Origin: Minisyncoccota bacterium
GTDB lineage: Bacteria; Patescibacteriota; Minisyncoccia; Phycocordibacterales; SBAW01
DNA: 64,000 bases
Assembly (NCBI GenBank): GCA_035546615.1
Contig: DASZWM010000005.1
Span: 40,959-104,958, forward strand
Direction: 5' to 3'
Shown piece by piece: positions 9,297 to 62,026 of the stretch; within the stretch, counting starts at the first letter, position 1, and every line of letters starts with the position of its first letter. The notes beneath the pieces were generated by a model, which did not search any database, had not been told where the DNA came from, and worked only from the letters and a program-made list of their open reading frames with translations. Both the position numbers and the translations under genes were made by a program.

Positions 9297-10109
9297 ATGA
9301 AGACAATCAAACTAAACGAGGATGCGAATATCCCCGTGCTCGGCCTGGGCACGTGGCAGCTGACGGGGGATGCGTGCACGGAAGCCGTCCGCTACGCGCT
9401 TGAGCTCGGCTACACGCATATCGATACCGCCGATGTGTATGGTAATCATGCGGAAGTGGCGAGCGGCGCTAAAGCCTCCGGCGTCGCACGGGAGAAGTTC
9501 TTCCTTACCACCAAGGTGTGGCGCACCGACTTGGCGCACGACCCGCTTGTGGAGAGCGCGGACCGCTTTCTTGAAGAGCTCGCTACCGACTATATCGACC
9601 TCCTCCTTATTCACTGGCCTAACAGCGAGATTCCTGTCGAGGCCAGTCTTAGGGCGATGGAGGAGCTTAAGCGCGCCGGAAAGGTGCGCGCGATAGGCGT
9701 TTCTAACTTTACTGTTCATCACCTTAAGGACGCACTTGAAGCCGGGGTTGAAATAACCAACAACCAAGTAGAGATACGTCCCGCCTTCGCGCAAAAAGAA
9801 CTGCGTGATTTCTGTGCTTCCAAGGATATTTCCGTAACCGCGTACTCGAGCCTGCGCGGCGGTGCTAATGAATTGCCGCTTATCGTGGAATTGGCAGGGA
9901 AGTACGGCAAGACTGCTTCGCAGATAATCCTCAACTGGGTTGTGGCTCGCGGCATGATAGCGATACCTAAGAGCTCGCACCCGGAGCGCATTAAAGAGAA
10001 TTTCGAGTCAGTAGATTTCGAAATGGAAGAAGCGGACCTCGCGCGCATAGATGCGCTGCCGGAAGGGAAGCGGGTTAATACGCCGGCCTTCGGGGAATTC
10101 GATTATTGA
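9297..10109 (+). CDS. Aldo/keto reductase (2,5-diketo-D-gluconate reductase-like)
   Basis: 270-aa ORF; AKR signatures LGLGTWQ, IDTADVYGNH, LLLIHWP, IGVSNF. Confidence 0.85.
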   Translation: MKTIKLNEDANIPVLGLGTWQLTGDACTEAVRYALELGYTHIDTADVYGNHAEVASGAKASGVAREKFFLTTKVWRTDLAHDPLVESADRFLEELATDYIDLLLIHWPNSEIPVEASLRAMEELKRAGKVRAIGVSNFTVHHLKDALEAGVEITNNQVEIRPAFAQKELRDFCASKDISVTAYSSLRGGANELPLIVELAGKYGKTASQIILNWVVARGMIAIPKSSHPERIKENFESVDFEMEEADLARIDALPEGKRVNTPAFGEFDY

Positions 10110-10583
10110 GAAAAGTTTTTGCCGATGGCATTCCACGGCAGTTTCATGCCTGATTCCGGAAACTTGTCGAGAATCCATTGTACGTAAGTATTACTGTTGG
10201 GACCACGCAAGCCGTATTTCTCTTTAAAAGGATATTGATCTACAGAAGAAGTAATACAGTCAGCCATTCGCTCCGCAGTGGAACCATCTGCACCTTCGAC
10301 AGTATCTACTATTGCAGAATTCCAGTGGAAGTAATGAACAAAAGCGAATGTCTGTATCCCGTCGGTAGGGGAAAGTAAGTCTGCGTCGAGATGGCCCCAG
10401 CTTTTGTCGCGAATCTGTCGTCCGAATCCTATTTCCCAGCGTGATATAGCGCCTTTTTATTCACGACGAACCAAGGATGGATAGCAAAGTTAAAAGGGAT
10501 ACAGGCAGGACATGCAAAAAGAAATACCTGATATAAGTCTTTCTTTAAGAGTTTCTGGAACTCGGCTTCGGTCATATTTCCAA
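10104..10583 (-). pseudogene. Frameshifted hypothetical gene (two overlapping frames joined at an A5 run)
   Basis: Minus strand: frame a reads MTEAEFQKLLKKDLYQVFLFACPACIPFNFAIHPWFVVNKKALYHAGK* and frame b reads ...KGAISRWEIGFGRQIRDKSWGHLDADLL...NSNTYVQWILDKFPESGMKLPWNAIGKNFSQ*. The frames overlap by ~12 codons at the homopolymer aaaaa (plus ttttt 10454-10458), and a 1-nt shift there would give one ~160-aa protein. The region is AT-rich. Confidence 0.45.
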
Positions 10584-10587
10584 ACTT

Positions 10588-10675
10588 TGGCGGAGGGGGT
10601 GAGATTCGAACTCACGGTACCTTGCGGTACTCTTGTTTTCAAGACAAGTGCACTCGGCCTCTATGCGACCCCTCC
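10588..10675 (-). tRNA. tRNA-Ser (anticodon TGA), CCA encoded
   Basis: 88-nt class-II tRNA: acceptor ggagggg/cccctcc, anticodon stem cttgt/acaag with loop ctTGAaa, long variable arm taccgcaaggtacc, T-arm gtgag-ttcgaat-ctcac, 3' gCCA encoded. Confidence 0.8.
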
Positions 10676-11155
10676 CTGGCGATTTTGTATCTTACCACTG
10701 TACCAGTTATTTTCTAGGTAATGTTCCTCTGAGTGACAATTTGGACAAAGTAGTTCCAGGTTATCCAGCGTATTGTGTTGCCGGTTTCTGTCTTTGTGAT
10801 GTACGTTTAATATCTCATACCTTGCATATCCGCATCGTTCGCAAATGGGGCCTCGCAGTTTCAACAGACGAAGTTTCAAGCCTCGCTGGTATACAACTTT
10901 GTCCTTAGGCGCTCGACCTTTGTATTTTATTCCTGCACGGTTGGTATTGGCGCAGCCTCTGCTACATGTATTTTTGTTTGCACTAGAGAGAATAGGTTTA
11001 CCGCAGACAACACAAGGGTGTTCTTTTCGAGTAGCTAGTCCATAACAGGTTTGACTGCAAAATACTCGACCTTGTTTAATTTGACCCGGTCGTCTATAGA
11101 TTGGTTTGCCACAAACTGTGCATGCAGTATTGGGATTTCTTTTATACTCATCCAC
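10661..11155 (-). CDS. HNH endonuclease with Cys4 zinc-ribbon motifs
   Basis: 164-aa ORF; HNH motif NVHHKDRNRQHNTLDNLELLCPNCHSEEH plus three CxxC pairs. AT-rich; the 3' end overlaps the tRNA-Ser 5' end by ~15 nt. Confidence 0.75.
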   Translation of the reverse strand: MDEYKRNPNTACTVCGKPIYRRPGQIKQGRVFCSQTCYGLATRKEHPCVVCGKPILSSANKNTCSRGCANTNRAGIKYKGRAPKDKVVYQRGLKLRLLKLRGPICERCGYARYEILNVHHKDRNRQHNTLDNLELLCPNCHSEEHYLENNWYSGKIQNRQGGVA

Positions 11156-11214
11156 TAATCCAGTATACCAATTCTTAGTATGGCAGGCAATACACTTTTT
11201 CCTGTCCGTAGGCT

Positions 11215-11889
11215 ATGCTCGAAGGGAACATGGATATCCAGATTGAGCGGCTGAAGAAAAATATAGACAAATTACAGAAGACGCATGGCCACCCGGACTA
11301 TACAGCCTTGTACGGGACTGGCTGTATCGATCATCCGGACCTTTTTCTTATTCTTATGAATCCGACCGCACGCAATATATCCGTGCACAAGGATTGGAAG
11401 GGTCTTAAGGCTTCCTGGCTCGGGACAAAGAACTTTTGGAAGATACTCTATAAACTCGAACTGATCTCGGCCAAAACTTTTGCAGCTACCCAGGAACGCG
11501 CCCCGGCCGAATGGGACAATGATTTCTGCGTCGCGGTGTATACGGAGCTGGCGCGCAACAAGGTTTTTATCACCAACTTAGGCCGTTCAACCCAGCCTGA
11601 CGCTCGACCACTCCCTGACGCGGTATATAAAGCGTGCGTTGCGCTCACCCAGGAAGAGATAAACGCAGTGAAGCCTAAAGTGGTCGTTCTCTTCGGGAAT
11701 CAAGTAAGCTCAGCTTTGCTTGAAACACCGATCAAGGTTTCTGAAACCCGCAAGAAACGTTTTGATCTTGAGATAGGCGGTACGGTGTATCCCGTATATG
11801 CCACCTATTACCCGGTCGGCATGGGATTTATGAATGCCGATAAGACGATCGAAGATGTTCGCTGGATTCGCAAGGCGCATTCACGATAG
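11215..11889 (+). CDS. Uracil-DNA glycosylase superfamily protein (putative)
   Basis: 224-aa ORF; motif-1-like LILMNPTARN (xNP motif as in MUG/SMUG families) and C-terminal YYPVGMG at the position of the HPS-type motif 2; VVVLFGNQ core. Confidence 0.45.
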   Translation: MLEGNMDIQIERLKKNIDKLQKTHGHPDYTALYGTGCIDHPDLFLILMNPTARNISVHKDWKGLKASWLGTKNFWKILYKLELISAKTFAATQERAPAEWDNDFCVAVYTELARNKVFITNLGRSTQPDARPLPDAVYKACVALTQEEINAVKPKVVVLFGNQVSSALLETPIKVSETRKKRFDLEIGGTVYPVYATYYPVGMGFMNADKTIEDVRWIRKAHSR

Positions 11890-11900
11890 ACTTACTTAGC

Positions 11901-12323
11901 ATGAAATATCTCGGCATAGATTACGGGACCAAGCGCATCGGCGTAGCTGTCTCTGATGATGGGGGCGTGGTAGCATTTCCCCTCACGACCCTGAAGAGCG
12001 ATAGGGACGCGGCAGGGGAGGTTGCCGCGCTTGCCAAGAGCCGCGAGGTCGGAACAATCGTCATCGGCGAGTCTCGCAATTTTCAGAACGAGCCCAACCC
12101 TGTGATGGAGGATATTGAGCAGTTCAAAAAAGACATTGCCAACCTGACAGGTCTGCCTGTGGAATACGAACGGGAGTTTTTTACCAGCACGCAGGCGGCG
12201 CGGCAGTTTGCGCCCGACGGCTCGCGCAAAGACAATCCTTCGCAGGAAAAGCTGGATGCATCGGCTGCAGCCTTGATTTTACAGGGGTATTTAGACAGAA
12301 TAGGTGCTAAGAAGCCCATATAG
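11901..12323 (+). CDS. ruvX: Holliday junction resolvase-like YqgF/RuvX
   Basis: 140-aa ORF; N-terminal LGIDYGTKRIGVAVSD and IVIGES motifs typical of YqgF. Confidence 0.8.
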   Translation: MKYLGIDYGTKRIGVAVSDDGGVVAFPLTTLKSDRDAAGEVAALAKSREVGTIVIGESRNFQNEPNPVMEDIEQFKKDIANLTGLPVEYEREFFTSTQAARQFAPDGSRKDNPSQEKLDASAAALILQGYLDRIGAKKPI

Positions 12324-17506: not shown

Positions 17507-18040
17507 ATGGAGGAATTTAAAAAATCTAAGGAAGCCGCGACAAGGAGCCTCAACCTTGCCGGCACTTTGCAGAAGCTTTTTCGCCCTGTCCTGATTAAAG
17601 GCATGGAGGGCGAAAAAACAGAGGATCCGATAGCTCGAGTAATAGCGGAAGCAGGCCCTAAAAACCTAAGCGATATAGAATCGTATCTTACAGCGCAGAG
17701 CATTGATGCCCTTGCTCCTCTTGAGCACGGCTATGGCTTTAGTGCCGTAGTGCTTGACGCAGGCGATCGGGTGGTGCGCTTAAGCAGACTGAAGCCTACG
17801 CATAAACCCGGTATTCCCCTTGTCCTCCAGCCTCTTGCGGAGGAAATAGTGGGAAAAATTTCTGTGCAGATCTTCAAAAAGCTTCAGACGGCGGGAATTA
17901 CGGACGCCGATGTACAGAATGTTAAGGACCAATTGGGGATGGAAGGGTATAGGTGGGATGACGCCGGTACCGACAACCTTGGGCGGGACGAGAACGGCCA
18001 ACTTTTTATACTCGACGGTTCGGTGCATACACTCGCATGA
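17507..18040 (+). CDS. Hypothetical protein, possible small kinase-like fold
   Basis: 177-aa ORF starting 4 nt after tRNA-His; YGFSAVVLDAGDRVVRLSRL (Gly-loop and Lys-like) ... DAGTDNLGRDENGQLFILDGS (D..N catalytic-loop-like and DFG-like) in kinase order; weak. Confidence 0.3.
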   Translation: MEEFKKSKEAATRSLNLAGTLQKLFRPVLIKGMEGEKTEDPIARVIAEAGPKNLSDIESYLTAQSIDALAPLEHGYGFSAVVLDAGDRVVRLSRLKPTHKPGIPLVLQPLAEEIVGKISVQIFKKLQTAGITDADVQNVKDQLGMEGYRWDDAGTDNLGRDENGQLFILDGSVHTLA

Positions 18041-19236
18041 GCAATGCTCCCATAACCTTCGTTATCTTCGGCGCCACGGGCGATCTGGCTCAGCGCAAGA
18101 TAGTGCCCGCGCTCTGCGCGCTGTACGCAAGCGGGGCGCTTCCTGAAGGCTCAGATATAGTCGCTTTTTCGCGCCGGCCGTGGGGCGACGCGGAGTATCG
18201 CTCCTTCATACAGCCCTCCCTCAAGGCTTTTCCGGAAGAAAAGGCGGTTAAATTCCTGGAGCGTATCCGCTATGTGCAAGGTACGTTCGGCGATCCCGCA
18301 TCGTTCGCTGCATTGAAAGATGCATTACGCACGCAGAATATCTTCTTCCACCTCGCAGTCCAGCCTGAGTTTTACGAATCCATCGTGCATGGGCTGGGGG
18401 ATGCGGGCTTGCAGGGCTCGCTCCTTATCGAGAAGCCGTTCGGCCACAACTACGCCTCCGCCGCATCGCTTGAGCGAGGTCTTGAGAAGTACTTTTCGCC
18501 CGAGCATATTTTCCGCGTCGATCATTACTTGGGGAAGGAAGGACTCGAGGTGCTTCTGAATCGCCGCCGCACGGATGCCGATTTTGAAAAGTCACTAAGC
18601 AGCGAGCGCATCGCGTCCGTCGCGGTCCGCCTGCTTGAGACGTTCGACGTAGAGGGTAGGGGAGAGTTCTACGACGCGGCGGGCGCGCTTAAGGACGTGG
18701 GCCAAAATCATCTGCTTGAGATGCTCGCGACACTTCTTATGAATATTCCGGAAGATGCTCGCGGCATTCCGCAGGCGCGCGCTGAAGCGATAGCGGGACT
18801 GGCCCCGAAGATGTCCGTTCAGGGGGCGGTGGCTGCCGTGCGCGGCCAATACGAGGGGTACCATGCCGATCCGGAAATTCCGGACGGCTCGCAAACGGAA
18901 ACGTATTTTAAAGTCGAATTGCGCAGCGCAATTCCGCGCTGGCAGGATGTCCCGCTCGTGCTTGAAGCGGGGAAAGCCCTGCGCGAAAAGAAAAGCGATA
19001 TCGAGATCTCATATAAGGACGGCTCGAAGCAGGTATTCGACATGGATATCCCCGGCGCGCGCGACGCATACGAGCACATGATAGAAGCGGCACTGCGCGG
19101 CGACGCGACGCGCTTTGCCGGAAGCGAAGAAGTGTTCGCCGCGTGGAAGCTTATCGACCCGCTGCGGGAGCAGCTCCTGAAATTGCCGCTTCACAGGTAC
19201 GACCGCGGCGGCGACGGCGCGGGGCGGTTTTTGTAA
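18037..19236 (+). CDS. zwf: Glucose-6-phosphate 1-dehydrogenase (short form)
   Basis: 399-aa ORF; NADP-binding FVIFGATGDLAQRKIVPAL, substrate motifs EKPFGHNYASA and RVDHYLGKE. Confidence 0.8.
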   Translation: MSNAPITFVIFGATGDLAQRKIVPALCALYASGALPEGSDIVAFSRRPWGDAEYRSFIQPSLKAFPEEKAVKFLERIRYVQGTFGDPASFAALKDALRTQNIFFHLAVQPEFYESIVHGLGDAGLQGSLLIEKPFGHNYASAASLERGLEKYFSPEHIFRVDHYLGKEGLEVLLNRRRTDADFEKSLSSERIASVAVRLLETFDVEGRGEFYDAAGALKDVGQNHLLEMLATLLMNIPEDARGIPQARAEAIAGLAPKMSVQGAVAAVRGQYEGYHADPEIPDGSQTETYFKVELRSAIPRWQDVPLVLEAGKALREKKSDIEISYKDGSKQVFDMDIPGARDAYEHMIEAALRGDATRFAGSEEVFAAWKLIDPLREQLLKLPLHRYDRGGDGAGRFL

Positions 19237-23135: not shown

Positions 23136-23549
23136 ATGCTGGAAGAAGGGAAGACTTTTGTTACTTTTGCGCAGATCCATTTTTCTACTCAAGGAGGCGG
23201 TCAGCTCAATCTTGCGGAGATTGAGGAAAAATTCCGTGCCATCCTCGCAGAAGAACCCTCTCGTTGGGAAGTGGAGTGGTTAAGGGCAGAAGACGCTACC
23301 GCAGGCGGCCTGCGCATGTCTTTCGCGCTTACAGATGCGGCGATCCTCTACTTCGGTTGTCGTTCCGGTAGCGAGCGCGATATTTCCATCCAGGAAATAT
23401 CATGTCTCATGGATTGGGTTGGGAGTATAACTAAGAAATTCTCCGAAGCCGAGTTCAAGTTTGGACTGCCGGTATTCGTGAGCGGTGGAGTCCAACTCAA
23501 CAGCAGCACAGGCGCTTACGCAACTAAAGCTTTTTCTGCCACCATATAG
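23136..23549 (+). CDS. Hypothetical protein
   Basis: 137-aa ORF with an aaggagg RBS 7 nt upstream; no recognisable motifs; followed by a terminator hairpin at 23564-23596. Confidence 0.45.
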   Translation: MLEEGKTFVTFAQIHFSTQGGGQLNLAEIEEKFRAILAEEPSRWEVEWLRAEDATAGGLRMSFALTDAAILYFGCRSGSERDISIQEISCLMDWVGSITKKFSEAEFKFGLPVFVSGGVQLNSSTGAYATKAFSATI

Positions 23550-23658
23550 GGATCTAAGAAAAAGCCCGGCGCCAAAGGTGCCGGGTACTGCTTTTCATTT
23601 GGAACGGCAAGGAGTACTCTGGGCGTCAGAGATCCTTTCGGCTAGCACAGGAGTTCCC

Positions 23659-24363
23659 ATGAAGCCCAACGTCTCTCTTCCTACCTGGATTCAGGACTTG
23701 ATGGTGACGTGGGTCCGGCCCCAAGTCACTCTCCGCAAAGTGGTGCGGTGGAGCAAATACCGCAAGCGCGGCACGCGCCGCCAAGACACGCTCCAGCACA
23801 CGCTCTCGCTTCTCTTGTTCGCAACGTGGGCGTTCCCGCTTTTCAGGCCCCATGTGCGGTTCGACGAATCGCTGCTCTTCCGTACCCTTTTGCTCCACGA
23901 CTTCGGGGAGGGGGAAACGCAGAAGGGCGACACCCTTTACATCGACAAGACGCGCGGCGGCGACCTGGCGGAAACCGCGGCGTTCATGGAACGGTTCGGC
24001 ATCGTTATCGGCCAGGAAGGCACTAAGGCCTTTCTTCTCCAGTTCGCGAAAAACGCGAACCAGATGGGCGAATTCAGAAGCATTCTGCAGGGGATTAAGA
24101 AGAAATACCCCGTCGAATGCCTGCTGTTCGACGCCCTGGAGCGCTTCGACTACTTTCTCTACGCTCTCGAGCAGTATCGGGAACTTGGGAAGGCGAAGAT
24201 CCTGGTGCAGGTGTTGCGCCATCAGATACCGCACTTCGAGCGTCTGTCACGCGAGCTGCCCGGCTTCAAACAGGTGCTCTGGCGGCCCGACTTGGCCGGC
24301 TGGTGCTCGCTGTTCCTCAGCCGCTACGACGGTCAGTGGATCGAGCAGAAGGGCGAAAAGTGA
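23659..24363 (+). CDS. HD-domain phosphohydrolase (YfbR-like) (putative)
   Basis: The ORF track gives 23485-24363, but that start overlaps the upstream ORF and the terminator; the likely start is MKPNVSL at 23659 with an aggag RBS; HD motif in LLLHDFGEGETQKGD. Confidence 0.45.
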   Translation: MKPNVSLPTWIQDLMVTWVRPQVTLRKVVRWSKYRKRGTRRQDTLQHTLSLLLFATWAFPLFRPHVRFDESLLFRTLLLHDFGEGETQKGDTLYIDKTRGGDLAETAAFMERFGIVIGQEGTKAFLLQFAKNANQMGEFRSILQGIKKKYPVECLLFDALERFDYFLYALEQYRELGKAKILVQVLRHQIPHFERLSRELPGFKQVLWRPDLAGWCSLFLSRYDGQWIEQKGEK

Positions 24364-24366: not shown

Positions 24367-24408
24367 AATATCGCCCGTCCCGGAACCCGGGACGGGCGAT
24401 ATTTTTTA
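24367..24408. terminator. Bidirectional terminator between convergent genes
   Basis: 16-bp perfect hairpin atatcgcccgtcccgg-aac-ccgggacgggcgatat followed by tttttt. Confidence 0.75.
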
Positions 24409-26520
24409 GACGGCTGCAACAGGATTTCTTTCGACGATATCCTGGGTGCCGCGCTTGTAGTTGAAGCGGTCTTCGCTTGAGTCTATGTGGAGTATTAATC
24501 CTTCGCTCTTCAATTCCCGAAGCATAAGCGCGCCGATGTTCTGGGAAATAACGCGGAGCGTTGGATGTACGGAAATGCCCGAACGCAGCTCGACGACAAA
24601 GGCTAGCGCGGGCAGGTCGCCGGTAATGCGGCAGGCAACCTGGTATCCCATCGGGACATAATACTGGGCTAGGGTAGGGGACAGATTCAGCCTCTCGAGG
24701 CCTGCAACGTAGCGGGCGAGAAAAGCTTTCGCCTCGTCCGCGAGCTGTTGCGGTACCTGGCTGAAGTACCATTCGCCGAACCCGTGCTTCGTCGTCAGAA
24801 GCGGCATCCGCTGGGTGATGGAACGATGCCGGTGCAGGTCGCGGAACGAGCCGAAGTCGAGCGGAAACGAGAACTGCATCCCTCCGGCTTCCGCAAGGAA
24901 TTTCGGCAGCTCCGCTTTTGCGGGGCGGCTGTCCAGGATATGGCGATGCTTCTGGAGCAGTCGCGGTTCCACGGTATTCCGCAGCAGAAGAACATTTCCG
25001 TATCCGGCCTTCGAGCCATTAAGGGTCGGTTCTGCTTCAGCGGAATAGTAGTACGCATTCTGCATCCACTCTTCGACGTATTCTTCCTGTGCAGAGTAGC
25101 GCTTAGCGAAGCCGGAATTCGGATACTTCTCCATTAGCGCTTCGCCCACCGCATTTGCGATATCGCGCACTTCTGCAAGCGGATGATGGCGCAGGCGCAG
25201 GAGATGGTCGGAAGCGTGCCGCAGCTCGGTATGCCACGCGAGGTTCGTTGCGGCGCCGGCAGGCAGGAATCCCCGCATGATATCGAACGCGCGGGCATTG
25301 ATGGCCTTCTGCCAAACCTTCTCGTCCTCATCAGTTTGGCGCGGATGGCGCTTGGCGAGCTCTTCCTTCATGGTTTCGAGCCCATTCAGATGGAATGCGC
25401 GCAGCGATTCAAGGAGCTCTGCGCCCTCTGGGGAGTTGTGCGGATTGCCGAACGCCTGTTTGGAGAAGTCGATGTAACGAGTCGAGGATTCCTGCCCATT
25501 GTAGAGCTGGGAGTCTTGTACCGCTTTCGCCGCGAGCATCGACACTCCTTCTATAAAGATGGTCGCCGTGCCGTCATCGCCGATGGATTTGTCGCCGTAA
25601 CCGACATAGTAGGTCTGCATGAAATCTTGGGCGCCCCGCTTGGCAAGCCTGATCAGGTGCGCATCTATGCCGCCCAGGGAGCGCGAATGAAGTGCTTGAA
25701 GCATTGCATCTTCCTCAGCATTGATGATAGCGCCGGTGTCGAGTACGACTACCTGCCCGTTTCCTGGGAGCGGCTTGCGTACGTGTTTCAGGTCTTCGTA
25801 TTTTGTAGCAGTTCCTTTTTGTACTTGTTCCTGCGCGGGTGCGGCGCGTTGTCCGATGTCGCGATCAAGGTAGAGGCGGGGGAGCATCTGCTCAGGGGTC
25901 CAGCTGCTTTTTACCTCTTCAAGGTTCGTGCTGACCTGATATTTGCCGCTCTTGGTGTAATCGGACTGTAGAATAGGCCCGGTCTCGAAGAAGATGATCT
26001 GCGCGATGCGGCGGCCGACCACAAGCGGAATGATGTAATTCTTGGAGTTGTTGGTTATCTCCATCGTCCAGCGGTTGACGTATCCGACGTCGCCCCAGCC
26101 GGCACATTTGCACACTTCTATGAAGTTGCGGCCCATGCTTGAGCGCGCCTTCATCATCGTCGTGATATGGTCGCGCCCGCCGATGAACTCGTTCGTATGC
26201 GCGAGGATGGTTTCGCCGGGCCGCAGGATGATGACCTTGTCCTCCGGGCTGATGCCGTCCCACTCAAAGTTATATTTTTCGAACGCTTCCTTCGCGGGTA
26301 CCGCCCGCTCCACCTTAGAGGCGCCCCACACATGCTCCATGTGCGCGCGGCTCCAGATGTTGTAGAGGCTGTGATTGTACTTGGTCGGCTGCTCGCGGAA
26401 GAAATGCTCCCCGAGCGTCACGTCGTAGGAAGAAGTGGCAAGATTTTCCCGCTTGAACGGCTCTATAATGACGGAGCCTTCCTGCATCGCTTCGAGGATT
26501 TTCTTGTCCGATAGTGCCAT
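24406..26520 (-). CDS. Fusion protein: dCTP deaminase-like domain + two tandem ThyX (flavin-dependent thymidylate synthase) domains
   Basis: 704-aa ORF. Residues 1-190 are Dcd/dUTPase-fold (LSDKKILEAMQEGSVIIEP; KARSSMGRNFIEV...GWGDVGYVNRWTMEITNNS). Residues ~230-480 are ThyX-like and keep the S.RY motif (ESSTRYIDF) but have QDSQ in place of RHR. Residues ~480-704 are ThyX-like with the RHR motif (FRDLHRHRSITQ) but no S.RY. Both halves keep the ThyX C-terminal helix pattern (AR..LP....T..W..N.R.L.HFL.LR). Confidence 0.6.
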   Translation of the reverse strand: MALSDKKILEAMQEGSVIIEPFKRENLATSSYDVTLGEHFFREQPTKYNHSLYNIWSRAHMEHVWGASKVERAVPAKEAFEKYNFEWDGISPEDKVIILRPGETILAHTNEFIGGRDHITTMMKARSSMGRNFIEVCKCAGWGDVGYVNRWTMEITNNSKNYIIPLVVGRRIAQIIFFETGPILQSDYTKSGKYQVSTNLEEVKSSWTPEQMLPRLYLDRDIGQRAAPAQEQVQKGTATKYEDLKHVRKPLPGNGQVVVLDTGAIINAEEDAMLQALHSRSLGGIDAHLIRLAKRGAQDFMQTYYVGYGDKSIGDDGTATIFIEGVSMLAAKAVQDSQLYNGQESSTRYIDFSKQAFGNPHNSPEGAELLESLRAFHLNGLETMKEELAKRHPRQTDEDEKVWQKAINARAFDIMRGFLPAGAATNLAWHTELRHASDHLLRLRHHPLAEVRDIANAVGEALMEKYPNSGFAKRYSAQEEYVEEWMQNAYYYSAEAEPTLNGSKAGYGNVLLLRNTVEPRLLQKHRHILDSRPAKAELPKFLAEAGGMQFSFPLDFGSFRDLHRHRSITQRMPLLTTKHGFGEWYFSQVPQQLADEAKAFLARYVAGLERLNLSPTLAQYYVPMGYQVACRITGDLPALAFVVELRSGISVHPTLRVISQNIGALMLRELKSEGLILHIDSSEDRFNYKRGTQDIVERNPVAAV

Positions 26521-26570
26521 AATCGAGTGAAGTGAGTGAAATAAAGTTTACTTTAATTCCGAACGAAGGA
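26521..26570 (-). repeat. Dispersed repeat copy R3 in the leader between the divergent dcd-thyX and tmk genes
   Basis: aatcgagtgaagtgagtgaaataaagtttactttaattccgaacgaagga. Its reverse complement matches 12326-12375 over ~35 nt, in the same orientation relative to the downstream start codon. Confidence 0.6.
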
Positions 26571-26650
26571 TGATTATATAATTGCGAAGCAATTCTATAC
26601 GGTATAGTGTGTTTCGGGAGTACTATACCACTGTGGAGAGGGGAACAAGT

Positions 26651-27289
26651 ATGGACAAACGCGGAAAATTTATCGTAATTGACGGCATGGACGGCTCCGG
26701 CAAGGGGACGCAGATAAAACTGCTCCAGGAGCGGCTTGCGGACAAGGGCGTGCTCTTCACTCGGGAGCCGGGCGGCTCGCCGCTTGGAGAGGAGATCCGG
26801 GAGATATTATTGAGGACCGAAGGAAATTCGCGCGGCCCGTTAGCGGACCTCTTTCTCTTCTTCGCGTCGCGGGCGTCGCATGTGGAGGATACCGTTACGC
26901 CGGCGCGCGAGCGCGGTACGCACGTCATAAGCGACCGGTACGCTTCCTCTACCTACGCCTTCCAGGCCTACGGGGAAGAGAAGCGCGAATTGCTGCCGCT
27001 TTTTGATGCGGTCATGCATTCGCTCGACCGGGCGAAGTACTGGCCGGACCTCTATCTCATCCTCGACCTTCCCGGCGAAATGGCCTACGAGCGCAGAAGG
27101 AAGGATGCCGCGCAGGCGAAAAGCGGTTTTGATCTCAAGCCGCTCGCATACCATGAGCGCACGCGAGAAGGCTTTAAGGCGTTCGCCAAAAGCTACGGTC
27201 CGGTCGAATTTGTCGACGCGAGCCGTAGCCCTCAGGAAATCCATGCCGATATCTGGAACATTGTCGCTCCCATGGTAGGATTTAAATAA
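26651..27289 (+). CDS. tmk: Thymidylate kinase
   Basis: P-loop FIVIDGMDGSGKGTQ, DRY-like SDRYASSTYAFQ; the start is chosen at MDKRGKF inside the longer listed ORF. Confidence 0.85.
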   Translation: MDKRGKFIVIDGMDGSGKGTQIKLLQERLADKGVLFTREPGGSPLGEEIREILLRTEGNSRGPLADLFLFFASRASHVEDTVTPARERGTHVISDRYASSTYAFQAYGEEKRELLPLFDAVMHSLDRAKYWPDLYLILDLPGEMAYERRRKDAAQAKSGFDLKPLAYHERTREGFKAFAKSYGPVEFVDASRSPQEIHADIWNIVAPMVGFK

Positions 27290-27339
27290 TATGATCTAGC
27301 GCGCTCAGAGACCGACTTACTTAGCTAACCGATATACCA

Positions 27340-28608
27340 ATGGATCTCTACGACGCTATACAAAAACAGGATAAGGACGTCTTCGCCACGCTTGAGGGCG
27401 AGGAAACGCGCGAGCGGGAAGGGCTTGAGCTCATTCCTTCCGAGAATTACGTTTCAAAAGCGGTGCGCCAGGCGCAGGGCTCGATATTCACCAACAAATA
27501 TTCCGAAGGATATCCCGGAAAGCGCTACTACGGCGGACAGACGTACACCGACCAGGTTGAGACGATAGCTATCGAGCGCGCCAAGCAATTGTTCGGCGCC
27601 AAATTCGCCAACGTGCAGACGCACTCGGGCGCCAACGCCAACATCGCGATGTACATGGCCTTGCTGCAGCCGGGGGACACGGTACTGGGTATGGATCTCA
27701 GCCACGGCGGGCATCTGACCCATGGCCACCCGGTTACCTATATCACCAAGTTCTTCAACTTTGTGCGCTATAAGATGAAGGACCCGGAAACCGGTGAGAT
27801 AGATTACGACGACATGCGGCGGGTGGCGCTTGAGGCCAAACCCAAGATAGTGCTGGCCGGATACTCGGCGTACTCCCGCGAGCTCGACTACGAAAAGATT
27901 TCTGCAATAGCAAAAGAGGTCGGCGCGTACGCGGTCATGGATGCGGCGCATATCGCGGGCCTTATTGCCGGCGGCGTTGCGAAAAATCCGTTCGACTACG
28001 GCTTCGATATCATTACTTCAACTACGCATAAGACTTTGCGCGGCCCTCGCGGCGGGCTCATCCTGACGCGCGAGTCCGAAGACATTGCCAAAAAAGTGGA
28101 CAAGGCGGTGTTTCCGGGTCTCCAAGGCGGCCCCTTGATGCACGTGATAGCGGGAAAGGCGGTCGCCTTCGGCGAGGCGCTTTCTCCGAAGTTCAAAGTG
28201 TATGCGGCGCAGATACTCAAGAACGCCAAAGCGATGGAAGAAGTATTTCGTGCTGCCAATGTGCGCATGCTCGGCGGCGGCACATCTAACCACCTTATTC
28301 TCGCCGATGTGTTCGGCAGCCTCGGCATCCCCGGGAAAGAAGCGGAAGTTTTGCTCGACCGCGTGGGCATCACGCTTAACAAGAATGTCATCGCAGATGA
28401 CACGAGGAACCCCATGGACCCGTCCGGCATTCGCTTCGGCACACCGGCCATAACGACGCGCGGGTTCAAGGAAGGGGAGTCCGCCCGCGTAGCCGAGCTT
28501 ATGCTTGAGGCTATGAAGAATCGCACTGATGAAGCGAAGCTCGACGCTATCCGCGAGGAGATAAAGGACCTCTGCGCGAAATTCCCGATTCCGGACTCGT
28601 TCGTATAA
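27340..28608 (+). CDS. glyA: Serine hydroxymethyltransferase
   Basis: 422-aa ORF; SHMT motifs LELIPSENY, YSEGYPGKRYYGG, PLP-Lys region TTHKTLRGPRGG. Confidence 0.9.
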   Translation: MDLYDAIQKQDKDVFATLEGEETREREGLELIPSENYVSKAVRQAQGSIFTNKYSEGYPGKRYYGGQTYTDQVETIAIERAKQLFGAKFANVQTHSGANANIAMYMALLQPGDTVLGMDLSHGGHLTHGHPVTYITKFFNFVRYKMKDPETGEIDYDDMRRVALEAKPKIVLAGYSAYSRELDYEKISAIAKEVGAYAVMDAAHIAGLIAGGVAKNPFDYGFDIITSTTHKTLRGPRGGLILTRESEDIAKKVDKAVFPGLQGGPLMHVIAGKAVAFGEALSPKFKVYAAQILKNAKAMEEVFRAANVRMLGGGTSNHLILADVFGSLGIPGKEAEVLLDRVGITLNKNVIADDTRNPMDPSGIRFGTPAITTRGFKEGESARVAELMLEAMKNRTDEAKLDAIREEIKDLCAKFPIPDSFV

Positions 28609-37153: not shown

Positions 37154-39130
37154 ATGGCACGGGAGGAAAAGGGAGGGGTCGAGGGTCTTAAGCGGCGCCT
37201 TTACACGCGCAAGCCCGCTCCGAAAACCGGCGACGCACGAACGCCGCTGTCGCCCTCGGAAACGCACATTCCGACCTCGTGGAGCGAGATACATGCGCCG
37301 GGAGAGGGAGCGGAACCCGCAATGCCCGAGGAGCCCGCGGCTCCGGCCGCGCCCATTACGTCCATAGCCCCGGCGGGCCTTGAAATGTCCAGAAAACGCA
37401 TGACATTCGCCACAAAGTTCTTTTTAGGCTCCATCGCCTTTTTTGTGGTGGCCGCGGGCATTGCGGCCGCGCTCTTCCTCGGAGGCGTCAACACTACTTC
37501 GCCGCAGAATATTTCCATATCGATAGACGCGCCGTCCTTAATAGACGGCGGCAAGGAGGCGCAGTTCAACATCACCATTACCAACCGCAACACCACGTCG
37601 CTCAACGAAGCGGACCTGGTCATCGATTACCCGGACGGCGCGCGCGCGGTGAACGACCCGACGCAGGCACTGACCCACGAGCGCATTTCGATAGGCACTA
37701 TCAAATCAGGCGAGCAGATAAAGCGCACGGCTTCGGCGCTCTTGTACGGGCAGGAAGGCGCGCAGCAGAAATTAGTCGCGCGGCTCGAATATAATCTTTC
37801 GGGCTCCAACGCCGTGTTCGAGAAATCCGCGGAGACGTCGTTCACCATCGGCTCGGCACCGGTATCGCTCACCGTGGACGCTCCGGAGCGGGTTATCGCG
37901 GGCGACCAGTTCGCGATGGACATAACCGTGCGCTCAAACGCAGCCGCTCCCGTCAACAATGTCACCGTGGAGGCGCAGTACCCGTTCGGATATTCCGTCG
38001 CGGCAGCAACGCCCTCAGCCGCAGCAGGCGGTTCGCTCTGGCGCCTGGGCACGTTGGCGCCCGGCGCTTCAAAAAAGATACACATCACCGGCGCCATAAC
38101 CGCCTCCGACGGAGACGACCGCGTATTCAAGTTCCTGATAGGCTCCAACGCCGACCAGACCGACGTGCATGTGCGCGTGCCGTTCCTAACGCTGCCGCAG
38201 ACCATAAGCGTCGAGCGGCCGTTCATTAGCGGCTCGGTTTCCGTGGAAGGCAAAACGGGCCAGAGCATTTCCGTCGCGGCGGGAAAGACATTGCGCGGCA
38301 CGGTGGAGTGGGAGAACAATCTCGACGACTCCATCTCCGACCTTGAGCTCAGTCTTTCCTTCAGCGGCCCCGCGCTCGATAAAAGCTCCGTGAACGCGCA
38401 GAACGGCTTCTACCAGTCGGGGAACTCCACCATAATCTGGACGAAGGACCGCAGCGGGGAGCTCGAGTCGGTAGCGCCCGGCGCCACGGGCTCCTACCAA
38501 TTCTCCTTCGGTACGCTTCCGCCGGGCTCGTCCGGCACGCTCATCACTAATCCGACCGTAACGCTCAACCTCACTGTGCGCGCGGTGCGCCAGGGCTCAA
38601 GCGGCTCGCCTGAGACAATCACTTCAGCGGCGACCGCCAAGGTAACGCTCGCATCCCAGCTTTCAATAGGCGCGGAATCGTCGCACTCGGGCGGGCCGTT
38701 CCAGAACGGCGGGCCGGTGCCGCCGCGCGCCGAAACGCCGACCTCCTACACGATTACCTGGACGGTAAAGAACTCCGCCAATGCAGTTGCCAATGCTGTG
38801 GCTTCCGCCGTGCTGCCGCCGTACGTCACCTTCGTCACCGCGCAGTCGGGAAGCGGCATCACGTACGACTCCGGCAGCCGCACCGTGCGCTGGAACCTGG
38901 GCGACGTGAAGGCGGGCGTGGGCTATACCACCGCCGCGCGCCAGGCCGCTTTCCAGGTGACGCTCACGCCAAGCGCCTCGCAGGTAGACTCCGTGCCTGC
39001 CCTTACGGGCCCGGCCAGCATTACCGGCCAGGACCGCTTCGCGCAGGTTACGGTGGAGGGCCAGGCGGAGTCTGTCAGTACCCATACCAGCGACGGCGGC
39101 AGCGGCAATGACGTTGTACAGCCGAAGTAA
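37154..39130 (+). CDS. Large membrane-anchored surface protein with repeated beta-sandwich (DUF11/CARDB-like) modules
   Basis: 658-aa ORF; Pro/Ala-rich N-terminus, single TM (FFLGSIAFFVVAAGIAAALFL), then repeated ~100-aa Ser/Thr/Val-rich modules (NITITNRNTTSL..., VTVEAQYPFGY..., NLTVRAV...). Confidence 0.5.
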   Translation: MAREEKGGVEGLKRRLYTRKPAPKTGDARTPLSPSETHIPTSWSEIHAPGEGAEPAMPEEPAAPAAPITSIAPAGLEMSRKRMTFATKFFLGSIAFFVVAAGIAAALFLGGVNTTSPQNISISIDAPSLIDGGKEAQFNITITNRNTTSLNEADLVIDYPDGARAVNDPTQALTHERISIGTIKSGEQIKRTASALLYGQEGAQQKLVARLEYNLSGSNAVFEKSAETSFTIGSAPVSLTVDAPERVIAGDQFAMDITVRSNAAAPVNNVTVEAQYPFGYSVAAATPSAAAGGSLWRLGTLAPGASKKIHITGAITASDGDDRVFKFLIGSNADQTDVHVRVPFLTLPQTISVERPFISGSVSVEGKTGQSISVAAGKTLRGTVEWENNLDDSISDLELSLSFSGPALDKSSVNAQNGFYQSGNSTIIWTKDRSGELESVAPGATGSYQFSFGTLPPGSSGTLITNPTVTLNLTVRAVRQGSSGSPETITSAATAKVTLASQLSIGAESSHSGGPFQNGGPVPPRAETPTSYTITWTVKNSANAVANAVASAVLPPYVTFVTAQSGSGITYDSGSRTVRWNLGDVKAGVGYTTAARQAAFQVTLTPSASQVDSVPALTGPASITGQDRFAQVTVEGQAESVSTHTSDGGSGNDVVQPK

Positions 39131-41650: not shown

Positions 41651-43081
41651 ATGGCCGACAAGAAAACGTTTTACCTCACGACGCCGATTTTCTATCCCAA
41701 CGCGAATCTGCATTTGGGCCACGCGTACGTAACAACCTTGTGCGACGTTCTTGCCCGCTACCATCGTTTGGCGGGGGACAAGACGTACTTTTTGACCGGT
41801 TCGGACGAGAACGCGCAAACCGTATTACAGGGAGCAAAGAAGGCCGGCAAAGACCCGGAAGTATTTCTGGAGGAGATTGTCACTAATTTCAAAAAGCTGT
41901 TCGCGAGCCTGAATATTTCTCAGGACCAGTTCATCCGAACATCCGACAGGCAAGTGCACTGGCCCGGCGCCATCGCTCTCTGGAAAAAACTGGATGTCGC
42001 GGGTGACATATACAAAAAAGAGTACGAGGGCCTGTACTGCGTCGGTCATGAGGCATTCATAACCGAAAAGGAATTGGTGGATGGCAAATGCCCCGACCAC
42101 GGTACTGTGCCGGAACTAGTCAAAGAGGAAAATTACTTCTTCCGCCTTTCCAAATACACGGATGCTATAAGAAAAAAGATAGAGTCAGACGAACTCAGTA
42201 TCGTTCCTACCACCCGAAAAAAGGAAATCCTCTCTTTTCTGGAGGAAGGGCTGCAGGATGTAAGTTTTTCTCGTCCTAAGACTTCTAACGCGGTGGGCAT
42301 TCCCGTTCCCGGGGACGACTCACAGGTGATGTATGTGTGGTGTGATGCGCTTTCAAACTACATAACAGCGCTTGGGTACGGTAAGGATGATGAATCGCTC
42401 TACAAGGAGTTTTGGCCCGGTATACATGTTGTGGGAAAGGACATCCTGCGCTTCCATGCCGCAATCTGGCCGGGCATGCTCATGTCCGCCGGTATTCCGC
42501 TTCCGCAGAAAATATTCGTGCACGGAATGATAATTTCCGGCGGTAAAAAGATGTCCAAGACTCGCGGGAATGTCATTGATCCGGTTGAACTGTTGAGCGA
42601 ATACGGAACTGACGCGGTACGCTACTTCCTTTCGCGCCACGTCTCGCCTATGGAGGACAGCGAGCTTACCTTAGAAGGGCTTAAGGATATCTATAATGCC
42701 GATTTGGCGAATGGTCTTGGCAACCTAGCTGCGCGCATCATGCAGCTCGCACAAACACACCTTGCTGAGCCCGTGGTCGTAGAATTTACCGGGTATCCAG
42801 AAGAATATACGAATGCCCTTGAACGCATGGAAATCAATAAAGCCGCTGATTTCGTCTGGAGCCGCATCAAGAGCCTAGACCAGCAAATAACGGACACGAA
42901 GCCCTTTACGGTAGTGAAAGAGAATCCCGAAGAAGGAAGGAAGCTTATCGCCGCGCTGGTGCGCGAGCTTGCGGCTGTAGACCTTCTTATCGAGCCGTTT
43001 ATGCCCGAAACCAGCAAGAAGATAATCGACGCCATCATGGCGAACAAAAAGCCCGAGAATCTTTTCCCTCGCAAAGACTAA
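41651..43081 (+). CDS. metG: Methionyl-tRNA synthetase (catalytic core, no C-terminal tRNA-binding domain)
   Basis: 476-aa ORF; HLGH (PNANLHLGHAY), KMSKS (KMSKTRGNV); ends after the anticodon-binding domain. Confidence 0.9.
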   Translation: MADKKTFYLTTPIFYPNANLHLGHAYVTTLCDVLARYHRLAGDKTYFLTGSDENAQTVLQGAKKAGKDPEVFLEEIVTNFKKLFASLNISQDQFIRTSDRQVHWPGAIALWKKLDVAGDIYKKEYEGLYCVGHEAFITEKELVDGKCPDHGTVPELVKEENYFFRLSKYTDAIRKKIESDELSIVPTTRKKEILSFLEEGLQDVSFSRPKTSNAVGIPVPGDDSQVMYVWCDALSNYITALGYGKDDESLYKEFWPGIHVVGKDILRFHAAIWPGMLMSAGIPLPQKIFVHGMIISGGKKMSKTRGNVIDPVELLSEYGTDAVRYFLSRHVSPMEDSELTLEGLKDIYNADLANGLGNLAARIMQLAQTHLAEPVVVEFTGYPEEYTNALERMEINKAADFVWSRIKSLDQQITDTKPFTVVKENPEEGRKLIAALVRELAAVDLLIEPFMPETSKKIIDAIMANKKPENLFPRKD

Positions 43082-43083
43082 GT

Positions 43084-43641
43084 ATGAGAATTTGTATTTT
43101 CGGCGATAGTATCACTTGGGGAGAGGGAGATAAGGAAATCGGCGGATGGGCTGATCGTCTAAAGGTCCATTTAATGGAACGGGATTTTAGCGTTTACAAT
43201 CTTGGAATTAGAGGGGACACAAGCGCTGGCGTTTTAGATCGGTTCAAACAAGAAATTGCTGCACGCAGCCGAAAGCTGGGAGGTATCTTGTTCGCGATAG
43301 GAATTAACGATTGCCTTCAGGGAGTTTCCGTAGAAGAGTTCCAGAATAATATGCGAACCCTTATGGAGCTATCTCCGGAGTTTGCGGACACAACTATAAT
43401 GATAGGCCTAACAAGAACCACGGATACCTCGGCCAATGAAAAGATAGAGCAATTTAATAAGGAGCTGGAGGTCCTCTGCAGAGAAAGAAAAGTTTTGTTT
43501 ATTCCCATGTTCGACCTTTTCGCAACAGATGATTTAACGAAAGACGGTCTCCATCCGAGTCCGACTGGCTACAAGAAGATGTTCGAGCGTATCAAACTTG
43601 TTCTAGAACCGCTTCTGCCTGTAATGACTGTCGACCAATGA
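43084..43641 (+). CDS. SGNH/GDSL-family hydrolase
   Basis: 185-aa ORF, AT-rich; block I GDSIT, block III GINDCL, block V DGLHPS. Confidence 0.7.
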   Translation: MRICIFGDSITWGEGDKEIGGWADRLKVHLMERDFSVYNLGIRGDTSAGVLDRFKQEIAARSRKLGGILFAIGINDCLQGVSVEEFQNNMRTLMELSPEFADTTIMIGLTRTTDTSANEKIEQFNKELEVLCRERKVLFIPMFDLFATDDLTKDGLHPSPTGYKKMFERIKLVLEPLLPVMTVDQ

Positions 43642-44414
43642 AGCTATTCGACGCCCATTGCCACTTGCAGCTTTCGCAATTCGACGCGGACCAGGCGGAG
43701 GTGCTTTCGCGCATGCGCGATAAGGAGATGGGCGCCATTGTTATCGGCGTAGACCTGGCAACGAGCAGGGAAGCGGTCGCGCTGGCTGAAGCTCACGACT
43801 TCTTGTGGGCTGCGGTAGGGCTGCACCCGAACGATAATCCGAAGGAGGAGTTCGACACGACGGCTTTTGAAGAGTTGGCGAAGCATCCCAAGGTCGTCGC
43901 AGTAGGGGAATGCGGGCTCGATTATTTCCGAAGCGGCGGCACTCCTGAGGAAAAGCTGGCCCAGAAAGAGCGGTTTGAAAAGCAGATAGCGCTGGCCATT
44001 AAGGTAGGAAAGCCTCTGATAATCCATTGCCGCAACGCGCACGACGACATGCTTGAGATCTTATCCTTATATTCTGCAGAATTAGAGAGTAAGGAGTTGC
44101 GGGCGGTTATTCATTTTTGCACCGTCGATGGGGCGCTTGCCCAGAAATATATCGACCTGGCCTGCTATCTTTCGTTCCCCGGGCCCATTACCTATACCGA
44201 CATGTACGACGATTCGATCAAAGTCGCGCCGATGGATAGGATTCTTGTCGAAACCGACTCACCATTTGCCGCCCCGGTGCCGTATCGCGGCCAGCGCAAC
44301 GAGCCCGCATACGTAGAGGACGTGGTAAAGAAAATCGCAGCTCTTAAGGGCGTCTTGGTCGAAGAAATGGCGGCCCAGATAGTCAAAAACAGTCAGGAAG
44401 TCTTCAAACTGTAG
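43638..44414 (+). CDS. tatD: TatD-family metal-dependent DNase
   Basis: 258-aa ORF; DAHCHL, GLHPND, GECGLDY, IHCRNA, ETDSPF motifs. Confidence 0.85.
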   Translation: MKLFDAHCHLQLSQFDADQAEVLSRMRDKEMGAIVIGVDLATSREAVALAEAHDFLWAAVGLHPNDNPKEEFDTTAFEELAKHPKVVAVGECGLDYFRSGGTPEEKLAQKERFEKQIALAIKVGKPLIIHCRNAHDDMLEILSLYSAELESKELRAVIHFCTVDGALAQKYIDLACYLSFPGPITYTDMYDDSIKVAPMDRILVETDSPFAAPVPYRGQRNEPAYVEDVVKKIAALKGVLVEEMAAQIVKNSQEVFKL

Positions 44415-55682: not shown

Positions 55683-56021
55683 ATGCTGTCTTCTTTCATT
55701 TGGTTTTTAGTTCCAACTGGGATTGCTTATATTATTGCCTATTGGATTTGTCAGAAAGTCGGAATCTTCCTTTATCGTCATTTACATAAATTTTCCTTGG
55801 CAGCACTTGGTACTATATTTTTATTCCTCATCACATTTCCTATTTTAATGGTAAATGGATGGTCCGTATCGGAAGCCATTATAGAAACGCGAGAGGGTAA
55901 CGATGCAGTGATTATCAGTTTGCTTGTTGGAGGGACTCCCACCCTTCTTGTTGCATGTGTCCTATTGATAACCGGCATAATCCTTTTATTGCGGATGCTA
56001 TATAAAATCCGTATAATCTAG
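55683..56021 (+). CDS. Hypothetical small membrane protein (AT-rich islet)
   Basis: 112-aa ORF with 3-4 TM helices; AT-rich. Confidence 0.4.
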   Translation: MLSSFIWFLVPTGIAYIIAYWICQKVGIFLYRHLHKFSLAALGTIFLFLITFPILMVNGWSVSEAIIETREGNDAVIISLLVGGTPTLLVACVLLITGIILLLRMLYKIRII

Positions 56022-56079
56022 CATCGCGCTTTAAGTTTTTTGACAATCAGTAAAGATTAGCGTAAAAAGCAGTATTAAC

Positions 56080-56685
56080 ATGAAGACATTTTTAATAAAA
56101 GTGGGGAAGATAGCTGCTTGGACGTTCGGCGTCCTGGTTGTCTTATTTATCGCCCTGGTCATATATCGCATTCCAGCGGTAGGCCAGAAAGAAAAGGCAG
56201 CGGAGGCCGTAACGCGCATCCATGCGGCGGAACTCACACTCGATACGGTAATGGGGAATCGTTTGCCGCTCCCGCCCAATGAGGAGGAAAATAACGCGAC
56301 GGTCGCGGGGATAGATAACAACGGAAACGGAATCCGCGACGACGTGGAGCTCGCAATATTCGCCAAGTACCCGAACTCCGCTAAGATTCGCGCAGCGGAA
56401 CTGCAATATGCCCTAGCCCTCCAGCTAATGATTACGGAAGTTTTTGACAAAGAGACTTGGATTGCAGCTGCTGAGATGCTTTCTCGTGGAGATGCATGTA
56501 TTGGACTTACAGTTCCTAATACTGACTTAACTACATACCTAAAAAGGTCAAAAGAAGTTGAGGATACCGTGCTTAATATTAGTATTCGTAAGAATGCAGA
56601 AGATGAGGCCTATAATTTTATAACAAGCTACGGTCTTCCGAATACTGATTTGTGCGATGTTGACTTAAATACACTTTCAGGTTAA
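56080..56685 (+). CDS. Hypothetical membrane-anchored protein
   Basis: 201-aa ORF; N-terminal TM anchor; AT-rich; no family motif. Confidence 0.45.
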   Translation: MKTFLIKVGKIAAWTFGVLVVLFIALVIYRIPAVGQKEKAAEAVTRIHAAELTLDTVMGNRLPLPPNEEENNATVAGIDNNGNGIRDDVELAIFAKYPNSAKIRAAELQYALALQLMITEVFDKETWIAAAEMLSRGDACIGLTVPNTDLTTYLKRSKEVEDTVLNISIRKNAEDEAYNFITSYGLPNTDLCDVDLNTLSG

Positions 56686-56699
56686 ATTCACCCCGTTTT

Positions 56700-61969: not shown

Positions 61970-62026
61970 AGCGGGCGCTTCTCGCTCAAGCAAAACGCCG
62001 CGCGGGAAACCGCGCGGCGTTTTGCT

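Follow-up and report, generated by a model that had tools for sequence, protein, structure and literature searches.

The stretch of DNA considered here, hereafter the window, is a 64,000-nucleotide (nt) portion of a Minisyncoccota genome (GenBank assembly GCA_035546615.1, contig DASZWM010000005.1, positions 40,959 to 104,958 of the forward strand). The gene of interest is an open reading frame (ORF) of 704 amino acids (aa) at 24406..26520 on the minus strand, starting with ATG, which joins a deoxycytidine triphosphate (dCTP) deaminase (Dcd) domain, a linker and two successive halves of a flavin-dependent thymidylate synthase (ThyX) in a single polypeptide. NCBI lists an identical protein, named 'FAD-dependent thymidylate synthase' (FAD, flavin adenine dinucleotide), from a metagenome-assembled genome (MAG) of Candidatus Paceibacterota.

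The Dcd domain, which has the dUTPase fold, occupies aa 1-222 (25855..26520, minus strand, as are the other parts of the gene) and is supported by the Pfam DCD match and by residue mapping. It is followed by a linker of 22 aa (aa 223-244, QRAAPAQEQVQKGTATKYEDL; 25789..25854), recognised by comparing the junction with unfused relatives, by a first ThyX-fold domain (aa 245-493; 25042..25788) defined from the Pfam Thy1 match, AlphaFold2 (AF2), hhalign and conservation counts, and by a second (aa 494-704; 24409..25041) in which the RHR motif R564-H565-R566 and R646 are kept. The Pfam matches to DCD (PF22769, aa 3-179, E 3.4e-30, 105.6 bits against a cut-off of 27) and Thy1 (PF02511, aa 301-468, E 5.8e-15, 56 bits against a gathering cut-off of 24.8) both exceed their thresholds, so the C-terminal region does carry a ThyX signal. 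Together with the AF2 model described below they bear out an earlier reading made from the letters of the window alone (the sequence-only reading), which had placed a Dcd-type N-terminus ahead of two ThyX-like halves. A terminator-like hairpin with a 17-bp stem was found on the minus strand in a promoter-terminator scan and begins 3 nt past the stop codon (24367..24403).

On the other side the gene faces tmk (26582..27289, plus strand), which encodes thymidylate kinase (Pfam Thymidylate_kin E 2.5e-35; TIGR00041 132.4 bits against a cut-off of 83.25), and beyond it glyA (27340..28608, plus strand), which encodes serine hydroxymethyltransferase (SHMT; Pfam SHMT E 1.2e-148, NF000586 567.8 bits against 335). 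These ORF positions and above-threshold scores confirm that both genes are divergently adjacent to the fused gene, as had been read from the sequence. The tmk ORF opens at a TTG at 26582, with the likely true start at ATG 26652 (MDKRGKFIVIDG), preceded by GGAGAGGGG; its homologues are 201-222 aa long. Both promoters presumably lie in the stretch that separates the fused gene from tmk (26521..26651), in which the promoter scan found no sigma-70 consensus.

Two ThyX-fold domains and divided active-site residues

Attempts to recognise the second ThyX domain from sequence gave little. Pfam and NCBIfam each see a single ThyX stretch, in the first half, and the last 235 aa had no match in Pfam, NCBIfam or family profile searches. 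BLASTP found no match between half 1 and half 2, and hhalign of the two returned a Prob of 0.6% with a set of close relatives and of 4%, in the correct register, with a diverse set. An AF2 model of aa 245-704, based on 46 family sequences, had a predicted local distance difference test score (pLDDT) of 87.8 and a predicted template modelling score (pTM) of 0.87. In this model an identical order of strands and helices, in a beta-alpha pattern, appears twice; the model has the ThyX alpha/beta fold and matches ThyX structures only. That aa 245-704 form two ThyX-fold domains is settled by structure prediction.

The full RHRxxSxxxxSxR(Y) motif is present in neither half and is complete only across both. 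Half 1 (region DSQLYNGQESSTRY) has ESSTRY at aa 344-349 and reads DSQ (aa 336-338) at the position of RHR, and half 2 (region RHRSITQRMPLLT) has RHRSITQRM at aa 564-572 and lacks SxRY. The sequence-only reading had described this split for the one protein; both motifs are present in the halves it had named, and the split holds family-wide, in 116 close relatives and in 144 diverse members of 34% to 74% identity. Residues were numbered by the ThyX of Thermotoga maritima, placed in register by hand and with hhalign, the weak profile alignments being checked by consistency of register. Half 1 keeps E344, S346, R348, Y349, D413, R416 and R434, the counterparts of E86, S88, R90, Y91, E144, R147 and R165, and half 2 is without equivalents of E86, S88, R90, Y91, R147 and R165, having M572, L574, T576, T577, Q619 and P637 instead.

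Counts over the 144 diverse members show how strictly each half holds its share. At R78 half 1 has D336 (D in 124/144) and half 2 has R564 (R in 144/144). At H79 the residues are S337, which is variable, and H565 (H in 128/144), and at R80 they are Q338, mostly P or Q, and R566 (R in 144/144). E86 (E344, E in 141/144), S88 (S346, S in 144/144), R90 (R348, R in 144/144) and Y91 (Y349, Y in 140/144) are kept in half 1 and lost in half 2. The E144 position is D413 in half 1 (D in 144/144) and a variable T616 in half 2; R147 corresponds to R416 (R in 137/144) and to Q619 (Q in 139/144), and R165 to R434 (R in 119/144) and to P637 (P in 77/144). At R174 the half 1 residue, R444, drifts, R being found in only 54/144, and its half 2 equivalent, R646, is R in 144/144.

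Canonical ThyX, or flavin-dependent thymidylate synthase (T. maritima TM0449, Mycobacterium tuberculosis Rv2754c, Helicobacter pylori and PBCV-1 A674R; PF02511), is a homotetramer of ~220-250 aa subunits with four identical three-subunit sites (PMC6514825). A review of the M. tuberculosis and H. pylori enzymes describes every canonical site as built from three subunits, of which A gives RHR and R199, B gives R190 and S71, and C gives S105, R107 and Y108 (PMC6514825). We infer that R199 of M. tuberculosis is R174 of T. maritima, that R190 is R165 and that S105/R107/Y108 are S88/R90/Y91. With this correspondence half 2 retains the putative 'A' residues and half 1 the putative 'B' and 'C' residues, and such a division of subunit roles predicts the loosened conservation that half 1 shows at its Arg174 equivalent. 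The halves must then probably cooperate in catalysis. In a D2 tetramer the symmetry, three two-fold axes, gives complete sites only when the half-2 domains lie on one diagonal; two tandem chains would then be expected to pair into a pseudo-tetramer that has two complete sites rather than four.

The window protein resembles canonical ThyX in having all of the residues that contact FAD and deoxyuridine monophosphate (dUMP) somewhere in the module, and in having SHMT as a partner, which fits a folate cycle free of dihydrofolate reductase (DHFR). It differs in carrying two diverged domains per chain, with two complete sites predicted per chain pair, in its low identity (11-15%) and in scoring below the cut-off of TIGR02170. 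Mechanistic work on ThyX, an antibiotic target, has so far been confined to four-site homotetramers. A natural family that sorts the residues into two domains would be an evolutionary readout of subunit contributions, and a two-site tandem ThyX would offer a simpler scaffold for mechanistic and structural studies.

Family distribution and the origin of the fusion

Tandem, motif-complementary ThyX is the usual ThyX of the Patescibacteria, with 477 species-level loci and more than 2,000 proteins, and aa 245-704 of the window protein are 52-74% identical to the tandem ThyX of this candidate phyla radiation (CPR). It is apparently the main thymidylate synthase of the Patescibacteria and is generically annotated. 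The sequence-only reading had called a Dcd-ThyX-ThyX protein unusual; this stands for the Dcd fusion, of which two are found among the >2,000 relatives, and falls for the tandem ThyX, which is standard in Patescibacteria. The neighbourhood was compared in 80 species-representative genomes carrying tandem ThyX. In 57/80 of the species loci tmk lies no more than 3 kb from thyX, and glyA does so in ~38/80. The order is thyX then dcd in about nine loci (L014, L015, L017, L018, L020, L028, L034, L047 and L078), in which the thyX match ends ~7-30 nt ahead of dcd, and none of the loci with this order showed a fusion. The pairing of dcd with thyX appears to be conserved though rearranged.

Jumbo Vibrio phages also encode a tandem ThyX, of 461-480 aa and with 32-35% identity over both halves, examples being vB_VmeM-Yong MS32 (L085:2971-4356) and BONAISHI (L086:2902-4344), where it is annotated as 'hypothetical protein' or 'thymidilate synthase-like'. 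The phage homologues have RHR and R174 in half 2 and E-S-x-R-Y in half 1, as in the CPR members, and depart from them only at the half-1 counterpart of Arg165, where they have Q or E. Matches also came from a Tunturiibacter jumbo phage and a Microcystis phage.

The stand-alone tandem or 'long' ThyX proteins (~450-475 aa in Patescibacteria, and those of vB_VmeM-Yong and BONAISHI) thus share with the window protein an identical partition of motifs, and those of the CPR share its tmk/glyA/dcd neighbourhood as well. They differ in being unfused to Dcd, which the nine closest species encode in a cistron of its own upstream. Some members are longer, with terminal extensions of 100-200 aa (P0329, 657 aa; P0319, 599 aa; P0260, 549 aa; P0387, 547 aa), and no Pfam domain was found in the extensions of these four or of P0364. 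P0345 (590 aa) has tandem ThyX followed by an OB-fold domain (tRNA_anti-codon), and P0334 (366 aa) has Dcd followed by a double-stranded-RNA-binding motif (dsrm); each may be a genuine fusion or a chimera of gene calling. The long ThyX representatives (P0329, P0319, P0260, P0387, P0364 and P0345) were also considered as candidates for fusion to Dcd or Tmk, and none was found by Pfam. The long ThyX of Chlamydia trachomatis (CT632), of ~529 aa, is perhaps another two-domain ThyX and may already provide a characterised example of the tandem form. The C. trachomatis enzyme has been expressed and assayed by NADPH (reduced nicotinamide adenine dinucleotide phosphate) oxidation in inhibitor screens (PMC3498832).

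Further Dcd-ThyX fusions were found neither among the >2,000 ThyX relatives scored with the full protein nor among >4,000 Dcd relatives scored with the N-terminal 265 aa, and not one of the 150 best representatives (50% identity) combined the two domains. The second of the two fusions is at locus L001, on the contig of an independent MAG (GCA_035546075.1). It is 77% identical to that of the window and likewise has tmk, glyA and DUF2914 neighbours. Its linker is unlike that of the window in both length and sequence, yet is in frame (L001 ...LDRDIGARTTPSDGQTQASKGATAMRYEDLKHVRK, window ...LDRDIGQRAAPAQEQVQKGTATKYEDLKHVRK).

The closest unfused relatives (L002-L004), with 74% ThyX identity and synteny as in the window, have a separate 226-aa dcd ending ...LDRDIKRK*, a 26-nt spacer and then a 475-aa thyX. 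Throughout L002-L013 dcd and thyX are separate genes, and in the nine closest species dcd lies directly upstream of thyX on the same strand with at least one stop codon between them. In the junction comparison the dcd of unfused relatives ends ...LDRDIKKK* and is followed by AAAGGA and ATG. The linker derives from the former stop codon, the intergenic spacer, the ribosome-binding site and the 5' end of thyX, and the former ribosome-binding site AAAGGA is still discernible in its DNA. In the window copy the internal ATG of thyX is gone, ACA AAA standing instead of ATG CGG, and it follows that the window organism can produce ThyX only as the fusion. The L001 linker (L001:3840-3930) keeps the old ribosome-binding site and the thyX ATG, now an internal Met (AAAGGAGCCACGGCCATG); a single mRNA might there yield a stand-alone ThyX in addition to the fusion.

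An assembly join of separate dcd and thyX genes was the danger to which the sequence-only reading had pointed. In two of the nine closest species, L005 and L010, the two genes are in frame with exactly one stop codon between them, and a single base error in an assembly or consensus could imitate a fusion from such a starting point. Such an artefact is highly improbable here: the second MAG, from another assembly, is also fused in frame through a different linker, and the window has other sequence where unfused relatives have the basic KKK tail, the stop codon and the thyX ATG, a difference that takes several changes and not one error. From the sequences compared the fusion is genuine, young and confined to a small Paceibacterota clade, and its origin was the loss of the stop codon between the adjacent dcd and thyX cistrons of a conserved pair. 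It presents operon neighbours caught merging, with unfused sister species to serve as controls, and offers a test of any kinetic or genome-protective benefit from linking the supply and the use of dUMP.

The covalent fusion of thymidylate-cycle enzymes has its classical precedent in the DHFR-TS of protozoa and plants, for which channelling is debated. That protein is built of unrelated folds and partners (ThyA and DHFR) and is an old fusion, established throughout large clades; the window fusion is known from two MAGs only. No description of a Dcd-ThyX fusion, of the tandem ThyX architecture or of the partition of its active-site residues was found in the searchable literature, nor any relevant work on ThyX in Patescibacteria. 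The domains all come from known enzyme superfamilies, and databases already label the protein generically as ThyX. The fusion is a minor curiosity, and the family-wide division of the active site between two ThyX domains is the more interesting observation.

The Dcd domain and the proposed pathway

The Dcd domain is 76-88% identical to stand-alone Dcd proteins of Patescibacteria, which are 225-240 aa long. Its catalytic-type residues are S127 and R131 (ARSSMGR), D144 (GWGD) and E154 (TME), and aa 192-195 of the fusion protein carry GKYQ, the C-terminal lid motif. The four residues align with S118, R122, D135 and E145 of Methanocaldococcus jannaschii and show conservation across 120 stand-alone Patescibacteria Dcd, and S127, R131 and E154 also match S111, R115 and E138 of Escherichia coli. 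BLASTP gave E 4e-20 against M. jannaschii DCD-DUT and E 0.006 against E. coli Dcd. The best solved homologues, with E values to 6e-06, are the bifunctional DCD-DUT enzymes of M. jannaschii (1ogh, E 2e-13), B. halodurans (4xjc) and M. tuberculosis (2qxx), with which the motifs RSSxGR, GW.D and T.E are shared. The window domain differs from these in an insertion (~20-30 residues, near aa 43-95) and in ~30 additional aa at its C-terminus, both of which are common to stand-alone CPR Dcd proteins, and no known bifunctional DCD-DUT is fused to a thymidylate synthase. A role as a defence-system dCTP deaminase was considered and rejected, there being no PADLOC family match at E <= 0.01.

We infer that the N-terminal domain is an active dCTP deaminase. 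It may go straight to dUMP, as do the bifunctional Dcd:dut enzymes of archaea and mycobacteria, and a dUMP-forming activity would supply ThyX directly. The fold and motifs are common to the whole dUTPase superfamily and the score against TIGR02274 falls narrowly under its cut-off (90.4 bits against 92.8), so a domain that is a dUTPase only, like the Pyrococcus 'Dcd-like' dUTPase, or that senses deoxythymidine triphosphate as a regulatory domain, has to be weighed. There is a precedent in an archaeal protein annotated as Dcd and actually a dUTPase, in the passage of PMC5122711 that cites Hogrefe 2002. These alternatives are improbable given that the deamination Glu of M. jannaschii DCD-DUT (E145, mutated in PDB 2hxd and 3gf0) is kept as E154, that the Ser and Arg of RSSxGR are likewise kept, and that profiles specific for dUTPase score poorly on the domain (PF00692, 17 bits against 22; NF001862, 18 bits against 103). 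A eukaryotic enzyme points the same way, Dcd2 of Dictyostelium, which nests in a clade mostly of CPR sequences and rescues an E. coli delta-dcd strain (PMC10733785).

With an active deaminase at the N-terminus the pathway would run as follows. The Dcd domain would convert dCTP to a deoxyuridine nucleotide, possibly dUMP directly. Two tandem chains would form a pseudo-tetramer with two complete FAD/dUMP sites, half 2 giving RHR (for FAD and dUMP) and the Arg174 equivalent, and half 1 giving the equivalents of Glu86, Ser88, Arg90 and Tyr91 (for dUMP) together with Arg147 and Arg165. At these shared sites dUMP would be converted to deoxythymidine monophosphate (dTMP) with methylene-tetrahydrofolate (methylene-THF) and NADPH. 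SHMT, from the neighbouring glyA, would regenerate 5,10-methylene-THF, and since ThyX yields THF no DHFR would be needed. Tmk would take dTMP on to the diphosphate (dTDP). Should the Dcd domain prove bifunctional, the fusion protein, Tmk and SHMT would between them span dCTP to dTDP in a minimal genome. That one polypeptide carries two consecutive steps of de novo thymidylate synthesis is in our view likely. The architecture, folds, residue partition and gene cluster are established, as are the origin and rarity of the fusion; the catalytic activities and the two-site oligomer are predicted, and so would be any kinetic advantage.

A number of points weigh against this reading. The ThyX signal is faint, TIGR02170, the ThyX equivalog, giving 30.1 bits against a cut-off of 87.9, and a search of PDB sequences with the family profile returned no ThyX at E <= 10. 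The T. maritima numbering was checked only by its agreement with the PDB mutants H53D, Y91F, E144R and R174K, and it reproduces H53, R78-H79-R80, E86, S88, R90, Y91, E144, R147, R165 and R174. The equivalence of M. tuberculosis and T. maritima numbering was derived from spacing. No biochemically tested member of the tandem ThyX family was found. No sequence determinant is known that separates a monofunctional Dcd, which stops at deoxyuridine triphosphate (dUTP), from a bifunctional one, which continues to dUMP. The absence of thyA and of a separate dut, a point that the sequence-only reading had raised for checking, was upheld within the 64-kb window only, where tblastn with thyA, dut and folA queries of E. 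coli gave nothing better than E 0.6. No second dcd or thyX was detected within the window either.

The faint match to TIGR02170, the lack of any solved ThyX among the sequence matches of the family profile and the presence of homologues in jumbo phages, whose genomes often modify their DNA, would also suit a tandem module that is not a thymidylate synthase, namely a PolB-like UMP (uridine monophosphate) methylase, a hydroxymethylase or another pyrimidine-modifying flavoenzyme. The module retains every canonical ThyX residue that contacts dUMP or FAD, split across its halves; tandem thyX of Patescibacteria is conserved beside tmk, glyA and dcd; no other thymidylate synthase is seen in the window; and presence in 477 species-level genomes fits a housekeeping role. 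A different enzyme is for these reasons quite unlikely, and thymidylate synthesis by the tandem module is preferred.

Joining Dcd to the tandem ThyX may secure 1:1 expression and co-localisation. That the fusion is young and rare, with a linker under loose conservation, points to an effect that is modest or neutral. A channelling metabolon, with dUMP or dUTP made by Dcd handed directly to the ThyX site, would suit the covalent linkage of consecutive steps and the loss of the internal start codon in the window, which makes the fusion obligatory, and a trimer-forming domain joined to a dimer-forming module would be expected to force a defined higher-order assembly. It sits poorly with two fusions among >2,000 relatives and unfused closest species, which fit a young and possibly near-neutral event, with a linker of ~22 aa that is of low complexity and poorly conserved, and with the ribosome-binding site and ATG retained in the L001 linker. 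A channelling metabolon is on balance unlikely, and channelling of deoxyuridylate is pure speculation. It is likewise speculation that trimer-forming Dcd and dimer-forming ThyX build a higher-order assembly such as a D3 hexamer. The joint proposal of an obligate half-of-sites ThyX pseudo-heterotetramer, a natural counterpart of the mixed-mutant heterotetramers that reportedly once served to map the ThyX active site, within a closed Dcd-ThyX assembly, taking dCTP to dTMP without release of mutagenic dUTP or dUMP, is unlikely; an example would be a D3 hexamer that combines three-fold with two-fold symmetry, made of a hexameric Dcd core plus three ThyX pseudo-tetramers.

Other features of the window

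The other genes sampled in the window are the housekeeping genes of a small genome, encoding NusG, L11, tRNA synthetases, FtsK and G6PD. The G6PD gene (G6PD_N and G6PD_C domains; 18037-19236, plus strand) is 5 kb off and encodes a possible source of NADPH for ThyX in a genome of reduced metabolism. A 292-aa ORF (23485-24363, plus strand), which overlaps another at 23136-23549 (plus strand), is convergent with the fused gene and has a weak HD signal (PF13023 HD_3, E 0.009), the family of the YfbR-type 5'-deoxynucleotidases. No solved homologue of this HD-like ORF was found. L002 has only a 134-aa ORF between thyX and rplK, and the 292-aa ORF may be a lineage-specific insertion beside the thymidylate genes.

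Base composition varies along the window, with G+C of 0.47-0.50 in the 2-kb blocks 10001-12000, 42001-44000, 56001-58000 and 62001-64000 and a background of ~0.56-0.60. Two large proteins are probably surface-associated. One, of 1278 aa (4758-8594, plus strand), has a Gly_rich_2 domain, and the other, a DUF11 protein of 658 aa (37154-39130, plus strand), is syntenic with a CLIPPER/DUF11 protein in L002.

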